Source: Magnetospirillaceae bacterium
GTDB lineage: Bacteria; Pseudomonadota; Alphaproteobacteria; Rhodospirillales; Magnetospirillaceae
Direction: 5' to 3'
DNA length: 64,000 nucleotides
Assembly: GCA_041685145.1 (NCBI GenBank)
Contig: JAWLGJ010000007.1
Location: 3,513 to 67,512, forward strand
Numbering within the stretch: position 1 is the stretch's first letter; the number at the start of each line of letters is the position of its first letter. Positions 41,569-48,411 of this stretch are shown here, piece after piece. Both the position numbers and the translations under genes were made by a program. The notes beneath the pieces are model-generated. The model was not told the DNA's origin. It made no database searches and saw only the letters and a list, made by a program, of their open reading frames with translations.

Positions 41569-42899
41569 GCACGAGCGAAGCCCTGGCGAAAGCCGACACC
41601 GGCGCGCCGCCCTACCTGGACGCCCTGGCGGACCTGGGCGGGCGCCTGCCCCACGGCCCCGACTGGCTCGACGACCTGCGCGGGCGCGGGCGCGCCGCCT
41701 ATGCGGCCGAGGGCCTGCCGACGCGCAAGACCGAGGCCTGGAAATACACCGCCGTCGCCAAGGCCGGCGCCTTCACCCATGCCGAACTGGCGCCGCCGGC
41801 CGCCATCGACGGCGCGCGCGGGGCCGATTTCGGCCTCGAATCCTGGCGGCTGGTGCTGGTCAACGGCCGCGTGCGGCCGGAGATGTCGGCGCTGGAGGGC
41901 CTTCCCGAGGGCGTCACCGTCGCCGGCCTTGCCGACACGCTTGCCCACGCCCCCGAGCGCCTGCGCCCGCATCTGGGCGGCGTGCTGGGCCTGGAGGCCA
42001 TGCCGCTGGCGGCGCTGAACACCGCCTATCTGGGCGACGGCGCCTTCGTGCATGTTCCGCGCGGGGTGGTGCTGGACCGGCCCGTGCAGATCGTCAGCCT
42101 GGGCGCCGCGGGCGAGGCGCCGGTGATGTTCCATCCCCGCCATCTGCTGGTGCTGGAGGACGGGGCCGCCGCCACCGTCGTCGAGACCCATGTCGGCGGC
42201 GGCCGCTATTTCGCGAACACCGTCACCGAGGTGGCCCTCGGCCACGGCGCCCGCCTCGCCCATGCCAAGATGCAGGACGAGGGGCCCGAGGCCGTGCACG
42301 TCGCCGCCTGCGCGGTGCGGCTGGCGGAGAACGCCGCCTATGACGGGCTGGTGCTGCACACCGGCGCCCGGCTGGCGCGCCACGAGCTGCGCGCCGAGAT
42401 CGCCGGCCCCGGCGCCGCCTGCACCATGAACGGCGCCTTCCTCGCCGACGGCAACCGCCACGTCGACAACACCCTGTTCATCGACCACGCCGCCCCCAAC
42501 GGCAGCTCGCGCCAGGTGTTCCGCGGCGTGCTCGACGACGCGGCGCGCGGCGTCTATCAGGGCAAGGTGCTGGTCGAACGCCCGGCCCAGAAGACCGACG
42601 CCCACCAGCTTTCGCGTGCCCTGCTGCTGTCGCGCGGCGCGGAGATGGACGCCAAGCCGGAACTGGAAATCTACGCCGACGACGTCAAATGCGGCCACGG
42701 CGCCACCACCGGCGAGCTGGACACGGCGCATCTGTTCTATCTGCGCGGCCGCGGCGTCGACCTGCCGACGGCGCGGCGGATGCTGGTCGAGGCCTTCATT
42801 GCCGATATCATCGACGCCTTTCCCGACGCCACGGTGCGCGAGGCCTTTGCCGGCCGCGTCGGCGCCTGGCTCGACGGCCACGCGGAGGCGGCGCGATGA
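41565..42899 (+). CDS. sufD: Fe-S cluster assembly protein SufD
   Basis: ATG overlaps the sufC stop. KTEAWKYT, and C-terminal DVKCGHGATTGELD...LFYLRGRG. Confidence 0.93.
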   Translation: MSTSEALAKADTGAPPYLDALADLGGRLPHGPDWLDDLRGRGRAAYAAEGLPTRKTEAWKYTAVAKAGAFTHAELAPPAAIDGARGADFGLESWRLVLVNGRVRPEMSALEGLPEGVTVAGLADTLAHAPERLRPHLGGVLGLEAMPLAALNTAYLGDGAFVHVPRGVVLDRPVQIVSLGAAGEAPVMFHPRHLLVLEDGAAATVVETHVGGGRYFANTVTEVALGHGARLAHAKMQDEGPEAVHVAACAVRLAENAAYDGLVLHTGARLARHELRAEIAGPGAACTMNGAFLADGNRHVDNTLFIDHAAPNGSSRQVFRGVLDDAARGVYQGKVLVERPAQKTDAHQLSRALLLSRGAEMDAKPELEIYADDVKCGHGATTGELDTAHLFYLRGRGVDLPTARRMLVEAFIADIIDAFPDATVREAFAGRVGAWLDGHAEAAR

Positions 42900-44119
42900 G
42901 CTACGACGTCGCCACGATTCGGGCCGAATTCCCCATCCTGGCGCGGCAGGTGCGCGGGCGGCCGCTGGTCTATCTCGACTCCGCCGCCTCGGCGCAGAAG
43001 CCGGCCTGTGTCATCGAGGCCGAGGCCGCCGTCTACCGCGACGAATACGCCAACATCCATCGCGGCGCCTATATGTTCTCGGAGCGCACCACGGCGCGCT
43101 ACGAGGCGGCCCGCGAGACGGTGCGGCGCTTCCTCAACGCCGCCGACAAGCGCGAGGTCGTCTTCACCCGCAACGCCACCGAGGCCATCAACCTCGTCGC
43201 CGCCACCTGGGGTCGCGCCAATCTGGGCGAGGGCGACGAGATCCTGGTCACCGAACTGGAGCACCACGCCAACATCGTTCCCTGGCAGATGCTGGCCCAG
43301 GAAACCGGCGCGGTGCTGCGCCCGGTGCCGGTGGGCGACGACGGCCGCTTCCTGATGGACGCCTTCGAGGATGCCCTGGGCCCGCGCACCCGGCTGGTGG
43401 CGGTGGCGCACATGTCCAATGTGCTGGGCACGGTGCTGCCGGTGGCCGAGATCGCCAAGCGCGCCCGCGACGCCGGGGCGGCGGTGCTCATCGACGGCGC
43501 CCAGGCGGTGTGCCACGCCGCCGTCGACGTGCAGGCCATCGGCTGCGACTTCTACGTCTTTTCCGGCCACAAGCTCTATGGCCCCACCGGCATCGGGGCG
43601 CTGTACGGCCGCCGCGAGTTGCTGGAGGCCATGCCCCCCTATCAGGGCGGCGGCGACATGATCCGGCAGGTCAGCTTCGCGGGCACCACCTGGGCGCCGC
43701 CGCCGGCCAAGTTCGAGGCCGGCACCCCGGCCATTGCCCAGGCCATCGCCCTGGGGGCGGCCATCGACTATGTCGAGGGGCTGGGCCTGGCGGCCATCGC
43801 CGCGCACGAGCACGACCTGCTGACCCATGCCACCCAGCGGCTGTCGGCGATTCCGGGCCTGCGCATCCACGGCACGGCGCCGGGCAAGGGGGCGGTGATC
43901 TCCTTCACCCTCGACGACGCCCACCCCCACGACATCGCCACCGTGCTGGACCGGCACGGCGTGGCGGTGCGCGCCGGCCATCACTGCGCGCAGCCGTTGA
44001 TGGACCGCCTGGGCGTGCCGGCGACGGCGCGGGCGTCCTTCGGGCTCTACAACACCCGCGAGGAGGTCGAGGCCCTGGCCGGCGCCCTGGAGAAAGTCGA
44101 GGAGATGTTCCGCCGATGA
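42896..44119 (+). CDS. sufS: cysteine desulfurase SufS
   Basis: ATG overlaps the sufD stop. FPIL...YLDSAASAQKP, PLP lysine SGHKLYGPTGIG, catalytic RAGHHCAQP. Confidence 0.95.
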   Translation: MSYDVATIRAEFPILARQVRGRPLVYLDSAASAQKPACVIEAEAAVYRDEYANIHRGAYMFSERTTARYEAARETVRRFLNAADKREVVFTRNATEAINLVAATWGRANLGEGDEILVTELEHHANIVPWQMLAQETGAVLRPVPVGDDGRFLMDAFEDALGPRTRLVAVAHMSNVLGTVLPVAEIAKRARDAGAAVLIDGAQAVCHAAVDVQAIGCDFYVFSGHKLYGPTGIGALYGRRELLEAMPPYQGGGDMIRQVSFAGTTWAPPPAKFEAGTPAIAQAIALGAAIDYVEGLGLAAIAAHEHDLLTHATQRLSAIPGLRIHGTAPGKGAVISFTLDDAHPHDIATVLDRHGVAVRAGHHCAQPLMDRLGVPATARASFGLYNTREEVEALAGALEKVEEMFRR

Positions 44120-44592
44120 GCCTGATGGACGACGACCTGCGCGACCTCTATCAGGAGGTCATCCTCGACCACGGCAAGCGGCCGCGCAACTTCCGCCACC
44201 CGGAGGACGCCAACCACCAGGCGCGCGGCCACAACCCGCTGTGCGGCGACCAGTTGGTGGTCTATCTGAAGACGGACGATGCCGGCACCGTGGTCGACGC
44301 CGCCTTTCAGGGCCGTGGCTGCGCCATCTCCACCGCCTCGGCCTCGCTGATGACCGAGGTGGTCATGGGCAAGAGCGAGGCGCAGGCCCGCGCCCTGTTC
44401 GAGGCCGTGCACCGCATGGCCACCGGCGAGGACGAGGTTCCCACCCCGCCCGAGGGCCTGGAAGACGATTTCGACCGCCTGATGGTGCTTTCGGGCGTGC
44501 GTGAATATCCGGCCAGGGTCAAATGCGCCACCCTGGCCTGGCACACGATGACCGCGGCGCTCAACGATGAAGAGGAGGCGACGACGGAATGA
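44116..44592 (+). CDS. sufU: SUF-system NifU-family sulfur acceptor (SufU type)
   Basis: ATG overlaps the sufS stop. NPLCGD...GRGCAIS.ASASLMTE...PARVKCATLAW matches the SufU Cys/Asp pattern. Confidence 0.88.
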   Translation: MSLMDDDLRDLYQEVILDHGKRPRNFRHPEDANHQARGHNPLCGDQLVVYLKTDDAGTVVDAAFQGRGCAISTASASLMTEVVMGKSEAQARALFEAVHRMATGEDEVPTPPEGLEDDFDRLMVLSGVREYPARVKCATLAWHTMTAALNDEEEATTE

Positions 44593-44996
44593 TACCGGAA
44601 CGTCCCTTCGCGCCCGATGCGGGCATGACGACCCCCGGCGAGGAGATCACCTCGCGCGCCGGCGACCCCCTGCCGGCCGACAAGCAGGCGGCGGCGTCGG
44701 AGGACGCCGTGATCGATGCGCTGAAAACCGTTTATGACCCCGAGATTCCGATCAACCTTTACGACCTGGGGCTGATCTACCATCTCGATCTCAGGGACAA
44801 CGGCGACGTCGCCATCACCATGACCCTGACCACCCCGGCCTGCCCGGTGGCGCAGCAGATGCCCGACCAGGTGGCCCAGACGGTGGCCAGCCTGCCCGAG
44901 GTCGGTGTCGTGACGGTGGAGCTTGTCTGGGATCCGCCGTGGACCTTCGACAAGATGAGCCCCGACGCCCGCATGGCGCTCGACGTGATGATGTGA
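44589..44996 (+). CDS. sufT: SUF-associated DUF59 protein (SufT-like)
   Basis: VYDPEIPINLYDLGLIY...TLTTPACPVA. Confidence 0.85.
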   Translation: MIPERPFAPDAGMTTPGEEITSRAGDPLPADKQAAASEDAVIDALKTVYDPEIPINLYDLGLIYHLDLRDNGDVAITMTLTTPACPVAQQMPDQVAQTVASLPEVGVVTVELVWDPPWTFDKMSPDARMALDVMM

Positions 44997-44999
44997 CCC

Positions 45000-45043
45000 G
45001 ACGACGCGAGAGCGTCGTCATTCCCGCGAAGGCGGGAATCCAG
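45000..45043. repeat. tandem hairpins including REP-like element copy 1
   Basis: GACGACGC-gaga-GCGTCGTC (45000-45019), followed by CGTCATTCCCGCGAAGGCGGGAATCCAG (45016-45043; stem ATTCCCGC/GCGGGAAT). It generates the spurious peptide motifs LDSRLRGNDD and IPAFAGMT in the track ORFs. Confidence 0.75.
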
Positions 45044-45096
45044 CAAGGCCGGAGCCATGAAACGAGGTAGGCGACGCTAAGCGCTGGCATCACCAA

Positions 45097-45124
45097 CTGG
45101 ACCCCCGCCTGCGCGGGGGTGACG
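45097..45124. repeat. REP-like element copy 2, inverted orientation
   Basis: The reverse complement CGTCACCCCCGCGCAGGCGGGGGTCCAG matches copy 1 at 23/28 positions. The TT->CC and AA->GG changes keep the stem paired. Confidence 0.7.
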
Positions 45125-45217
45125 GAAGGGGCGCGGCGCGCGGTTTATTCGCGCCGGGCGCGCCTTCCATCCACGCGCATCCCTGTTCATCCGTGTCAGC
45201 TTGAAAGGCTGCCCGCC

Positions 45218-45622
45218 GTGGCAAACAAGGTCCACAAGCCCGACGAGGACTGGCGGCGCGAACTCTCGCCCGAGCAGTACGCCGTCTGCCGGTGCAGCGC
45301 CACCGAGCCGCCCTTCACCGGCCGCTACTGGAACGAAAAGCGCCCCGGCACCTATCACTGCGCCGCCTGCGGCCAGGATTTGTTCCATTCCGGCGCCAAA
45401 TACGACTCCGGCACCGGCTGGCCCAGCTTCTGGGCCCCGGTGGCCCAGGACCGCGTGGCGACGCGCCTCGACTCCAGCCACGGCATGACCCGCACCGAGG
45501 CCCTGTGCAGCCGCTGCGACTCCCACCTGGGCCACGTCTTCGATGACGGCCCCGATCCCACCGGCCAGCGCTACTGCATCAACTCGGCGGCGCTGGCGTT
45601 GAAGGCGGAGGATGAGGACTGA
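45218..45622 (+). CDS. msrB: peptide-methionine (R)-S-oxide reductase
   Basis: GTG 45218, 9 nt after GAAAGG. Zinc CxxC pairs (YHCAACGQ, CSRCDSHLGHVF) and catalytic RYCINS. Confidence 0.9.
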   Translation: MANKVHKPDEDWRRELSPEQYAVCRCSATEPPFTGRYWNEKRPGTYHCAACGQDLFHSGAKYDSGTGWPSFWAPVAQDRVATRLDSSHGMTRTEALCSRCDSHLGHVFDDGPDPTGQRYCINSAALALKAEDED

Positions 45623-45990: not shown

Positions 45991-47010
45991 CTATTTCTTC
46001 AGGTAGTCCTGCGCCAGCACCTCGGCGATCTGCACGGTGTTGAGCGCCGCGCCCTTGCGCAGGTTGTCGCCGACGCACCAGAAGCTGAGGCCGTTCTTCA
46101 CCGTCTCGTCGCGGCGCAGGCGGCTGACGAAGACGTTGTCCTCGCCGGCGCATTCGACCTGGGTGACATAGCCCTCGTCGGCGCGGTAGTCGACCACCGA
46201 GATGCCGGGGGCGTTGCGCAGCGCCTCGCGGGCGTCGTCCTCGGAGACGGCGTTCTCGAACTCGACATTGATGTATTCGGCGTGGCCGATGAACACCGGC
46301 ACGCGGGCGCAGTTGGCGTGCAGCTTGATGTCGGGGTCGAGGATCTTGCGCGTCTCCACCGCCATCTTCCACTCTTCCTTGGTCTCGCCGTTCTCCAGGA
46401 ACTTGTCGATGTGGGGAATAACGTTGAAGGCGATCTGCTTGGTGAACTTCTCATTCACGATCGGGTCGTTCACATAGATGGCGCGGGTCTGGTTGAACAA
46501 CTCGTCCATGGCGTCCTTGCCCGAGCCCGACACCGACTGGTAGGTCGACACCACCACGCGCCGAATCTTGCCCAGGTCATGCAGCGGCTTCAGCGCCACC
46601 ACCATCTGGATGGTCGAGCAGTTGGGGTTGGCGATGATGCCGCGCTTGGTGTAGCCGGCGATGGCCTCGGGGTTCACCTCCGGCACCACCAGCGGCACGT
46701 CGGGCTCCATGCGGAAATGCGAGGTGTTGTCGACCACCACGCAGCCGGCGGCGGCGGCGCGCGGGCTGTGCTTGGCCGAGACGCTGGCGCCCGGCGACGA
46801 CAGGGCGATGTCGACGCCGGTGAAGTCGAACGTGGCCAGGTCGCGGCACTTCAGCACCTCGTCCTCGCCGAAGGAAATCTCCTTGCCCACCGACCGCTGG
46901 GAGGCGAGCGGAATCACCTCGTCGACGGGGAACTGGCGCTCGGCCAGGATGTTGAGCATCTCGCGCCCGACATTGCCGGTCGCGCCGATGACTGCGATTC
47001 TGTAACCCAT
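45991..47010 (-). CDS. asd: aspartate-semialdehyde dehydrogenase
   Basis: GAGGAGCAAAAG precedes ATG 47010. IGATGNVGREM, and active-site NPNCSTIQMV. Confidence 0.95.
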   Translation of the reverse strand: MGYRIAVIGATGNVGREMLNILAERQFPVDEVIPLASQRSVGKEISFGEDEVLKCRDLATFDFTGVDIALSSPGASVSAKHSPRAAAAGCVVVDNTSHFRMEPDVPLVVPEVNPEAIAGYTKRGIIANPNCSTIQMVVALKPLHDLGKIRRVVVSTYQSVSGSGKDAMDELFNQTRAIYVNDPIVNEKFTKQIAFNVIPHIDKFLENGETKEEWKMAVETRKILDPDIKLHANCARVPVFIGHAEYINVEFENAVSEDDAREALRNAPGISVVDYRADEGYVTQVECAGEDNVFVSRLRRDETVKNGLSFWCVGDNLRKGAALNTVQIAEVLAQDYLKK

Positions 47011-47056
47011 CTTTTGCTCCTCGCTTTTCTGTCGCCCGCGCGCCCGATATGAAACA

Positions 47057-47077
47057 GCCCGCGTGGTGCACGCGGGC
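47057..47077 (-). terminator. attenuator-type terminator hairpin in the asd leader
   Basis: Minus strand reads GCCCGCGTG-cac-CACGCGGGC (9-bp stem) followed by TGTTTCATAT, 46 nt upstream of the asd ATG. Confidence 0.45.
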
Positions 47078-47111
47078 CAATCCAAATTCGGTCAAATCGA
47101 CCGGCCCGCGC

Positions 47112-47225
47112 CTATCCGCCGGTTTTCGTAGTGGTCGCGGAGGTGGTCGTCGTGACGGCGCACGCCATCGCCGCCGGCCGGGGGCCGGCCGAACCGTCGG
47201 GGCGGTCCAGGCGAATGCGCGACAT
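47112..47225 (-). CDS. candidate Thr-rich leader peptide (37 aa) upstream of asd
   Basis: GGAAGGAG 5 nt before ATG 47225. Peptide MSRIRLDRPDGSAGPRPAAMACAVTTTTSATTTKTGG, with 8 Thr in the last 13 residues. The TAG stop abuts a segment that can pair with the terminator's left arm. Confidence 0.45.
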   Translation of the reverse strand: MSRIRLDRPDGSAGPRPAAMACAVTTTTSATTTKTGG

Positions 47226-47253
47226 GCGGGCTCCTTCCGTCTCGCGGCCGCGC

Positions 47254-47282
47254 ATTAGTCCAGAATATCGGCCGGCGGTCAA
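47254..47282 (-). promoter_or_regulatory. candidate promoter for the asd leader transcript
   Basis: Minus strand reads TTGACC (47282-47277), 17-nt spacer, ACTAAT (47259-47254). Confidence 0.4.
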
Positions 47283-47283
47283 G

Positions 47284-47298
47284 GGGGGCTTTGCCCCC
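47284..47298 (-). terminator. terminator-like GC hairpin after leuB
   Basis: Minus strand reads GGGGGC-aaa-GCCCCC immediately after the leuB TGA, followed only by CTTGACC (poor U tract). Confidence 0.4.
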
Positions 47299-47304
47299 GC
47301 CCCT

Positions 47305-48411
47305 TCAGGCCACCAGCCGGTCCAGCTCGCCGACCACGGCCTCGCCCATGACCGTGGTCGAGACCTTGGCCTTGCCGGGCTGCATGATGTCGGCGGTGCG
47401 CAGCCCGCCGTCGAGGACGTTGGTCACCGCCGCCTCGATCAGGTCGGCCTCGGCGCCGAGATCGAAGGAATAGCGCAGCATCATTGCGAAGCTGAGCAGG
47501 GTGGCCAGGGGATTGGCGATGTCGTTGCCGGCGATGTCGGGGGCGGAGCCGTGCACCGGCTCGTACAGCGCCCGGCGGCGGCCCTGGGCGTCGGCCCCGC
47601 CCAGCGAGGCCGAGGGCAGCATCCCCAGCGAACCGGTCAGCATGGCGGCGCAATCGGACAGGATGTCGCCGAACATGTTGGTGGTGACGATGACGTCGAA
47701 CTGCTTCGGCGCCCGAACAAGCTGCATCGAGGCGTTGTCGACATACATGTGCGACAGCTCGACCTCGGGGTATTCCTTGCCCACCGAGACCACTTCCTCG
47801 CGCCACAGCACGGTGGATTCCAGTACATTGGCCTTGTCCACCGAACAGACGCGCTTGCCCCGCTTCATCGCCAGGTCGAAGGCGACGCGGGCGATGCGGC
47901 GCACCTCGGGGGTGGTGTAGACCAGGGTGTTGTAGCCCTTGCGGGTGCCGTCGGGCAGGGTGTCGATGCCGCGGGGATCGCCGAAATAGATGCCGCCCGT
48001 CAGCTCGCGCACGATCATGATGTCGAGGCCGGCGACCACCTCGTGCTTCAGCGTGCTGGCCTCGGCGAGGGCGTCGAAGACGATGGCCGGGCGCAGATTG
48101 GCGAACAGGCCCATCTCCTTGCGGATGCGCAAAAGCCCCCGCTCCGGCTTCTTGTCGAAGGGCAGATCGTCCCACTTCGGCCCGCCGACGGCGCCCAGCA
48201 GCACGGCGTCGGCGGCCATCGCCTCGGCCAGGGTCTCGTCGGTCAGCGGCACGCCGTGCCTGTCGATGGAGGCGCCGCCGATGAGGCCCTCGCGCACGTC
48301 GAAGCCGACGCCGCGCCGGCGTTGCAGCCACTCCATCACCCGGCGCACCTGCGCCGTCACCTCCGGGCCGATGCCGTCGCCCGGCAGCATCAAAATCGTC
48401 CTGTCGCGCAT
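47305..48411 (-). CDS. leuB: 3-isopropylmalate dehydrogenase
   Basis: [15 protein letters not shown], and the SASLG...[13 protein letters not shown] pattern. Confidence 0.95.

Follow-up and report, generated by a model that had tools for sequence, protein, structure and literature searches.

How is the supply of aspartate semialdehyde, the last common intermediate for lysine (Lys)/diaminopimelate, threonine (Thr), methionine (Met) and isoleucine (Ile), controlled at the gene that makes it, asd? We know of little work on control of this branch point outside the enteric bacteria. The question is raised by the region upstream of asd in a 64,000-nucleotide (nt) stretch of DNA from a Magnetospirillaceae bacterium (GenBank assembly GCA_041685145.1, contig JAWLGJ010000007.1, positions 3,513 to 67,512; this whole stretch is referred to below as the window), for which an earlier note, made from the letters alone, had proposed a Thr-sensing leader-peptide attenuator. 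From the analysis described here we predict that the element in front of asd is very probably a functional ribosome-mediated leader-peptide transcription attenuator, and that the family to which it belongs probably senses Lys as well as Thr. The mechanism would be the textbook one, and the novelty appears to lie in the target gene, the lineage and the combination of Thr and Lys codons.

The asd leader in the window is predicted to adopt either of two exclusive structures

The minus strand of the window carries, in order, leuC, leuD, leuB, a 294-nt intergenic region and then asd (ATG 47010). Within the intergenic region lies a 37-codon leader open reading frame (ORF) that ends 101 nt upstream of asd and whose last 13 codons include 8 Thr codons and one Lys codon. 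It is followed by three GC-rich segments, termed A, B and C, of which A begins at the first base after the stop codon. All of the elements that the earlier note had described, from the promoter candidate and the Shine-Dalgarno (SD) sequence of the leader, through the ORF with its Thr codons and the three segments, to the SD sequence and start codon of asd, lie where it had placed them (Table 1), and they show the enterobacterial type of architecture to which it had likened them (ORF, codon run, candidate terminator, exclusive antiterminator and the placement of A at the stop). Open frames with at least five Thr in their last 14 codons occur seven times in the whole window, both strands included, and the asd leader is the sole one of the seven with a recognisable A/B/C layout behind it, as judged by eye over the 70 nt past each stop.

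Segment B can pair either with C, as a terminator, or with A, as an antiterminator. The B:C stem comprises 10–11 bp with a 3-nt loop (-19.5 kcal/mol folded alone), and a scan for terminator-like sites reports it at 47079-47055 with 11 pairs, 8 of them GC pairs, a 3-nt loop and at least five T in 8 (TTTCATAT). The A:B helix comprises 9 bp (-21.9 kcal/mol as a duplex), and the A..B hairpin including its spacer reaches -26.9 kcal/mol. The alternative pairings proposed previously are therefore real features of the sequence, with their sizes revised from 8 to 9 bp for A:B and from 9 to 10–11 bp for B:C. When one or the other state is forced upon the 201-nt leader, the terminator and antiterminator forms are isoenergetic (-96.7 and -96.8 kcal/mol), which is the result of the folding comparison that the earlier note had suggested. 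The complementarity between A and B at the stop stands out from its surroundings, since among 2730 background windows of 30 nt drawn from this stretch only 0.04% do better (p=0.0004). Part of the Thr run, segment 1, pairs with A and its 3' flank in the minimum free energy (MFE) structure of the ribosome-free 251-nt leader, and a pairing of this kind is predicted in the free-RNA MFE structures of five related loci introduced below (L005, L009, L010, L087 and L095). Segment 1 together with A, B and C would complete the classical four-segment layout. In constrained folding of the window leader, the terminator results when a ribosome footprint of 28 nt is placed over the stop codon, and the antiterminator when it is placed over Thr codons -13 to -7. 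The B:C stem lies at least 28 nt from the asd SD sequence, which is not sequestered.

The same layout precedes asd in eleven other loci

To place the element in context, 160 asd loci were fetched from genome and metagenome collections. The nearest relative of the window asd is that of Inquilinus, at only 79% identity, so the fetched loci represent distinct genera. The ORF-stop-A-B-C-U layout, with a leader carrying Thr and Lys codons, was found upstream of asd in 11 other loci, namely the genome records L002, L005, L009, L010, L012 and L013 and the metagenome contigs L082, L087, L090, L095 and L100 (Table 1). The Thr-run mini-ORF and alternative helices that the earlier note had proposed to look for in orthologous asd leaders are thus present, and both helices show compensatory changes, as described below. 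The Thr/Lys runs lie near the C-terminus (e.g. TTKTGTTTT, TTTTKTKTTT, TITKKTKT, TLKTKKTTGTKT, KTTTKTTKTT and TKTK). The leader peptides are 14-42 amino acids long with unrelated N-termini. All that they have in common is the Thr/Lys run and where it lies relative to the stop and A, a pattern typical of leader peptides and not of functional proteins. Each leader has an in-frame start codon, and an SD-like site precedes the start in all scored members except L005 (the scoring took in 11 leaders, the window and 10 relatives, leaving out L082).

Lys accounts for about 26 of the approximately 41 non-Thr residues inside the runs (a hand count), and Ile appears in the runs of L010 and L087 only. The candidate regulatory codons at family level are therefore Thr and Lys, with the window copy contributing a single AAA. 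The earlier proposal of Thr sensing stands in so far as the Thr run is concerned, and gives way to a Thr plus Lys codon set across the family.

The junction between the stop codon and segment A is also conserved. Segment A (consensus GCGGGCC) starts between -3 and +2 nt from the first post-stop base in 10 of the 11 members scored, the other being L012 (-9). The leader stop is TAG in 9 of 12 members (the window, L002, L009, L010, L013, L087, L090, L095 and L100) and TGA in three. TAG is usually the rarer stop in GC-rich genomes, so that this share seems high; common ancestry of the leaders, or a constraint acting where the stop meets A, may be the reason. We also observe that the G of TAG is often the first base of segment A (TAG-CGGGCC). 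The 5' arm of the terminator, segment B, starts 27-36 nt past the stop in the 10 relatives analysed, and L082 is alike by reading. A spacer hairpin of unrelated sequence is found between A and B in most relatives, the sequence of the spacer not being conserved.

Behind the terminator stem, the relatives carry U tracts (CTTTTTGG, CCTTTCGTTTTTC, CCTTTTTTCG, CCCTTTTTGCTTTTGG and CTTTTTTGTTGGG) that are far better than that of the window; the caveat of a weak U tract raised previously holds for the window and does not extend to the family. From the end of the terminator to the asd ATG there are about 27-63 nt in most members (27 in L012, 32 in L090, 44 in the window and in L009) and 78 nt in L013. 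In most members the terminator is thus too near asd for a separate promoter by size alone, and asd transcription must pass through it. L082 differs in its arrangement, with the leader and terminator at 500-701 followed by an unnamed 182-residue ORF (~715-1262) and then asd at 1283, so the attenuator may control a two-gene operon there; this ORF has no NCBIfam match and is acetyltransferase-like by eye.

Two further loci were kept as possible members only. In L015 (Magnetovibrio, MIYVIKENKKTHTFL) the stem is imperfect and the locus scores 8.4 bits with the covariance model R1 described below; L045 (Aestuariivirga) has no terminator.

Recurrence and covariation of the helices

We asked how often such leaders would be expected by chance, using as a criterion an ORF of at least 10 codons whose last 14 codons contain three or more Thr, one or more Lys and five or more Thr plus Lys together, and whose stop lies 60-170 nt from asd. 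Ten of the 87 alphaproteobacterial-type asd upstream regions pass, nine of which are in the final set, the tenth being L045. The controls gave no cases in reverse complements, a mean of 0.53 (maximum 3) in 200 shuffles and a mean of 0.70 (maximum 2) in random segments from the same loci. The A:B complementarity at the stop beats its same-locus background in every scored instance (p 0.0004-0.086). These values combine to a Fisher value of 3e-13, which is not a true probability because the instances are related, and which pools two loci, L004 and L086, that were later excluded.

The RNAalifold consensus structure of the family is the terminator. A covariance model, R1, was built from 11 asd leaders with the terminator as its only structure and used to align 13 sequences; the resulting alignment, A3, is not fitted to the A:B helix. 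It takes the place of a hand-registered alignment of the A/B/C cores, which was dropped as circular. The A:B helix in A3 is 87.9% paired, compared with 28-52% in slid registers, and includes three pairs changed on both sides; its values are reached by at most 2 of 500 shuffles. The B:C helix is 95.2% paired (29-53% when slid), with four pairs changed on both sides. Compensatory changes are exemplified by L095, where B reads GCCTGCG with A as CGCAGGC, and by L012, in which B (GGCCGC) is matched by GCGGCC in both A and C. Folded alone, A..B forms a hairpin in all 12 members, at about -15.8 to -26.8 kcal/mol, usually with the spacer hairpin on top.

A predicted attenuation mechanism

Consistent with these elements and their energies, placement, conservation and covariation, we envisage the following sequence of events. 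Transcription from a promoter just downstream of leuB would enter the 37-codon leader ORF, which is presumed to be translated. With charged tRNA-Thr (and, family-wide, also tRNA-Lys) plentiful, the ribosome would reach the TAG and its footprint would cover segment A; B would then pair with C, and the hairpin followed by its U tract, weak as it is in the window, would halt RNA polymerase about 44-45 nt before asd. With Thr (or Lys) scarce, the ribosome would stall at an ACN or AAR codon, 9-40 nt short of the stop, melting the segment 1:A pairing and leaving A uncovered. Segment A could then capture B as it emerges, no terminator with C would form, and the polymerase would read into asd. The expression of asd would in this way respond to tRNA charging.

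Constrained folding reproduces this behaviour in part. With the footprint on the stop the terminator forms in all members, and a stall at upstream Thr codons gives the antiterminator in the window, L002, L090 and L100. Of the 13 loci folded at equilibrium with the ribosome stalled, only five yield the antiterminator, and such folding is not counted as support for the others.

Several observations weigh against the proposed attenuator. In L009, L010, L012, L013, L087 and L095 the terminator is still the more stable structure at equilibrium with the ribosome stalled, so the switch in these relatives must be kinetic and co-transcriptional, as is likewise accepted for the E. coli trp leader. The U tract of the window (GTTTCATAT) is poor, which makes the efficiency of intrinsic termination here uncertain, and the single Lys codon of the window copy makes Lys sensing doubtful in this particular leader. 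The whole 251-nt leader is no more stable than its shuffles (z = -1.1), a comparison that is uninformative for a two-state element. Variation within the helices is modest, most copies reading GGCCCGC/GCGGGCC, so that the covariation rests on few changes (those in L095, L012, L013 and thrL, the Thr leader of E. coli). A family of proteins with Thr-rich tails, encoded at L004, L086 and L011, superficially resembles the leaders and had to be excluded. Finally, the distribution is patchy, the leader being absent from many close relatives, Inquilinus and Azospirillum among them.

Alternative explanations

The look-alike proteins raise the possibility that the window ORF, too, is the gene of a small, functional protein rich in Thr, followed by a terminator of its own, and is no regulatory leader. 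L004, L086 and L011 encode proteins of 53-63 residues with a signal-peptide-like N-terminus and a tail of the form ..TTTTK..GG followed by a terminator; L011 has a convergent gene between the ORF and asd, all three ORFs score weakly with R1 (21.7-26 bits), and an ..AC..T-run..K..GG* tail is common to them and the window peptide. The window peptide and its 11 relatives, however, have no hydrophobic N-terminus, and their lengths and N-termini are unrelated; a promoter-like TTGC.G-16/17-TACATC follows the terminator in L004 and L086 and, by eye, in none of the core set; and pairing of A with B at the stop has no role in a plain protein gene. We therefore regard a small-protein gene in the window as very unlikely. 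L004 and L086, which had first been counted as instances of the leader, were rejected for their signal peptides and the promoter-like site after the terminator, and L011 was excluded for its signal peptide and the convergent gene before asd. It is equally hard to sustain the view that the hairpin merely terminates an upstream unit (leuB or a small gene), with the Thr-rich ORF a chance frame and asd served by its own promoter. Short ORFs arise easily in GC-rich DNA, the lack of excess stability over shuffles noted above fits a plain terminator, leuB-asd adjacency is common, and in some relatives there is no leader. Against this, the 44 nt between the terminator and the asd ATG in the window (27-63 nt in most relatives) hold no -35/-10 candidate; the ORF, the Thr/Lys run, the stop-A junction and the A:B helix are kept in 11 other lineages, even in L012, L013 and L100, which lack an upstream leuB; and the 10 loci observed compare with 0-0.7 expected from the controls. 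A terminator of this kind is, in our estimation, highly improbable.

Somewhat less remote, and still unlikely, is that the window has the same sensor with a different read-out, in which B:C would act through Rho-dependent termination, RNA stability or asd translation. The window U tract, much poorer than those of the relatives, points in this direction, as does L045, where an ORF ending ..TFKKPTKKTV lies upstream of asd with no recognisable intrinsic terminator. The window site nevertheless passes the terminator-like scan (11-bp stem, five or more T in 8), the U tracts of the relatives that share its layout are canonical, and the distance between B:C and the asd SD sequence argues against sequestration. 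Control of the terminator by a metabolite riboswitch or a protein-binding leader (e.g. a lysine- or S-adenosylmethionine-responsive one), the ORF being irrelevant, would have precedent in other phyla, some of which regulate asd through lysine riboswitches or other RNA elements. No match in the window attains the gathering score of its Rfam family. Below that threshold, Thr_leader is the only match that fits among those with E<=10 in the leader or E<=5 in the 12 relative loci; the remainder (small RNA, small nucleolar RNA and microRNA precursors, and two riboswitch aptamers scoring 12.7 and 12.9 bits where 34 and 36.2 are required) have the appearance of chance matches. Moreover, it is codon identity in one frame that is conserved and not the sequence of the A-B spacer, and we consider such an aptamer-based control extremely unlikely. 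A ribosome-mediated leader-peptide attenuator is the explanation that we retain.

The locus, its flanking genes and other features

The proposed promoter, TTGACC-17-ACTAAT, is present in the sequence as described in the earlier note and was rejected by a consensus scanner on account of the C at position 2 of its -10 element; the case for it is its match to 9 of 12 consensus positions only. Transcription from it would begin near 47247, just downstream of leuB. In most relatives a TTGNNN-17-TANNNN site precedes the start of the leader by 22-46 nt, which lends support to the candidate in the window without proving it. Six nt past the leuB stop there is a GC hairpin, GGGGGC-AAA-GCCCCC, possibly a weak leuB terminator; it was not called by the terminator scan, and since it has only CTT behind it, read-through from leuB into the asd leader seems possible. 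The 3' end of this hairpin abuts the proposed -35 element.

Leaderless asd loci, such as L007, L089 and L092, are organised differently and more simply. Upstream of asd they have in common a divergent small membrane-protein gene (..FWPRYL..H..R..H..G..) and, at about -70 to -30, a conserved promoter-like CTTGTAAAGC(N)..CGTAAGTCA; this arrangement is that of Inquilinus-like and other relatives. Downstream of asd in the window, on the plus strand at 42689-45622, there are ORFs that by eye resemble a SufS-like cysteine desulfurase, an IscU/SufU-like scaffold, a DUF59-type Fe-S assembly protein and MsrB.

An ..A-C-(V/A).. motif recurs in several leaders, 14-25 residues ahead of the stop, for instance AMACAV, DVACVT, NTACVA and VRCAQ (window 47157-47165; L013, L095 and L002), which recalls the ..A-x-A-C.. 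after the signal peptide of the L004, L086 and L011 proteins. In the leaders the motif could be chance or an RNA-level constraint. The proteins of L004, L086 and L011 may be an evolutionary source or a derivative of the leader, or mere look-alikes.

Table 1. Positions of the leader elements and neighbouring genes in the window, with the leader tails of relatives and the positions of look-alike ORFs.
Feature	Position or source	Strand	Description and basis
Promoter candidate	47254..47282	-	TTGACC (47282-47277), 17-nt spacer, ACTAAT (47259-47254); 9/12 consensus matches
Leader SD	47231..47238	-	GGAAGGAG, 5 nt before ATG 47225; sequence, anti-SD duplex -8.0 kcal/mol
Leader ORF	47112..47225	-	MSRIRLDRPDGSAGPRPAAMACAVTTTTSATTTKTGG, 37 codons + TAG (47114-47112); sequence and ORF list
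Candidate regulatory codons	47121..47153	-	ACG ACG ACC ACC tcc gcg ACC ACT ACG AAA ACC; 8 Thr + 1 Lys within last 13 codons
Segment 1	47133..47149	-	CGACC..UCCGCG..CC within Thr codons; pairs with A and its 3' flank when ribosome-free; MFE of 251-nt leader; 1:A hairpin alone -20.9 kcal/mol
Segment A (segment 2), predicted antiterminator 5' arm	47101..47111	-	GCGCGGGCCGG, starts at first base past TAG; duplex and fold calculations, alignment
Spacer hairpin	47089..47103	-	CGGTC-GATTT-GACCG, inside antiterminator loop; scan and fold
Segment B (segment 3)	47069..47078	-	GGCCCGCGTG, pairs with either A or C; sequence, folds, alignment
Segment C (segment 4), predicted terminator 3' arm	47056..47065	-	CACGCGGGC (47065-47057) then TGTTTCATAT; as CACGCGGGCT; scan, fold, covariation
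Weak U tract	47047..47055	-	GTTTCATAT, behind terminator stem; sequence and scan
asd SD	47017..47022	-	GAGGAG; read from sequence
asd, aspartate-semialdehyde dehydrogenase, regulated gene (predicted)	45991..47010	-	NF011456 505 bits (cut-off 223); TIGR01296 asd_B 452 bits
leuB, 3-isopropylmalate dehydrogenase, upstream gene	47305..48411	-	ORF list; NCBIfam TIGR00169 502.5 bits (cut-off 353)
GC hairpin past leuB	47284..47298	-	From sequence
Leader of L002	Magnetospirillum sp. UT-4		..VVTTKTGTTTTS
Leader of L005	Genome record		..ATTTTKTKTTTPR
Leader of L009	Rhodospirillaceae metagenome-assembled genome		MFNLLGKTTETKSTQ
Leader of L010	Rhodospirillales metagenome-assembled genome		MFFALTITKKTKTLH
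Leader of L012	Dongiaceae		..TLKTKKTTGTKTGGWNAA
Leader of L013	Terasakiella sp. A23		..GSKTTTKTTKTTA
Leader of L082	Metagenome contig		..SVTTKTVVKTKR
Leader of L087	Metagenome contig		..AKNTTKKTIITR
Leader of L090	Metagenome contig		MRALKIGTKTKDPC
Leader of L095	Metagenome contig		..DSKTTTKKPTA
Leader of L100	Metagenome contig		..TPTKPTTRTTTG
Look-alike ORFs	L004 ~2189-2363; L086 ~1199-1361; L011 1790-1981		Cys just after signal peptide, Thr-rich stretch with Lys, ..GG* end, strong terminator

Comparison with known systems

The earlier note knew of no asd leader-peptide attenuator described in this lineage, and none for asd was found in the full-text literature that could be searched (comparative studies of attenuators and cis-regulatory RNAs, catalogues of Caulobacter and Streptomyces leader peptides, and a Weinberg/Breaker motif survey), which leaves room for an earlier in-silico prediction in Vitreschak et al., 2004 (FEMS Microbiol Lett) or Lopatovskaya et al., 2010 (Mol Biol). 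For the other motif surveys from the Breaker laboratory, the occurrence count of 'asd' is zero in each. Leader-peptide attenuators have been reported in Alphaproteobacteria for trpE(G) of S. meliloti (Bae and Crawford, 1990, as cited in PMC13285730) and for ilvBN of C. crescentus (PMC4117421). Upstream of asd itself, 'attenuator-like sequences' are mentioned for S. mutans (Cardineau and Curtiss, 1987, as cited in PMC2864571), and the asd RNA motif RF01732 of Lactobacillales occupies the same position (PMC2864571). The latter resembles the present element in being an RNA upstream of asd and differs in belonging to another phylum and in being a structured RNA motif for which no leader-peptide logic is described. 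Neither RF01732 nor the lysine riboswitch RF00168 matches the window at its gathering score, nor the region 46900-47400 at E<=10.

The asd leader shares with trpL, hisL, leuL, ilvL/ivbL and pheL the four-segment logic, in which the codons lie in segment 1, the stop masks segment 2, the 2:3 and 3:4 helices are exclusive and an intrinsic terminator ends the leader; amino-acid specificity and target gene differ. Haziza, Stragier and Patte are said to have found, in 1982, that E. coli asd is under multivalent repression by Lys, Thr and Met with 'absence of a typical attenuation signal'. The branch-point enzyme would thus respond to more than one end product in both cases, whereas E. coli reportedly has no attenuator and the asd leader here carries a typical attenuation signal. 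If the prediction is correct, a Thr/Lys asd leader provides a concrete regulatory mechanism for a group of Alphaproteobacteria that includes the cultivable Magnetospirillum and Terasakiella.

The closest likeness is to thrL. Thr_leader (RF00506) is the best sub-threshold Rfam match in the leader (23.3 bits, E=0.041 in a 501-nt search), and the model aligns to the window leader over its full length; in L009 and L087 it scores 35.7 and 27.1 bits, respectively. With a gathering score of 55, the asd leaders are not Thr_leader members by Rfam's own criterion. Because the element is missed by current Rfam thresholds, the mini-ORF risks annotation as a hypothetical protein; the exact 37-residue leader peptide (47115-47225) is already called as a gene product in an NCBI-derived protein collection, where it is unnamed and forms a singleton cluster. 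In the reverse direction, R1 matches E. coli thrL from end to end (48.4 bits, E about 1e-11), because the same A/B/C cores occur in the same order: ACC-rich codons are followed by ..GGT GCG GGC TGA, 24 nt, GCCCGCAC..GTGCGGGC and nine T, and thrL fits both helices in A3. Clearly unrelated matches to R1 in a background of ~775 kb score at most 15 bits. In between come L082 (30 bits), now counted in the family, the Thr-rich small-protein ORFs that had been excluded, and the same terminators read on the reverse strand (up to 20 bits). R1 could serve as the starting point for a new RNA family and for surveying its targets more widely.

Both thrL and the asd leaders consist of a short ORF with an ACN Thr run, in which a GCGGGC at the stop pairs with the GCCCGC of a GCCCGC...GCGGGC-U(n) terminator ~25-35 nt downstream, and both control, or are predicted to control, the aspartate-family pathway. 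They differ in target (asd as opposed to thrABC), in host (Rhodospirillales-type Alphaproteobacteria as opposed to Enterobacteria and related Gammaproteobacteria), in the second regulatory residue (Lys in the asd leaders, Ile in thrL) and in the position of A, which lies just past the stop (usually TAG) in the asd leaders and inside the last codons before TGA in thrL. On this sequence evidence the asd leaders would constitute a thrL-like family and not an isolated oddity, for which homology and convergence on common GC-rich terminator cores are both possible origins. A more far-reaching idea, which we put forward tentatively and hold to be rather doubtful, is that the asd leader and gammaproteobacterial thrL share a common ancestry, the leader having been rewired in an alphaproteobacterial lineage from thrABC to asd and recoded from Thr plus Ile to Thr plus Lys, so that one ribosome-read sensor serves two end products and provides the main control of aspartate-family flux in its carriers. 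The presence of a conserved Thr/Lys leader before asd would in itself imply that thrL-type cassettes can attach to different genes and be recoded for another amino-acid pair.

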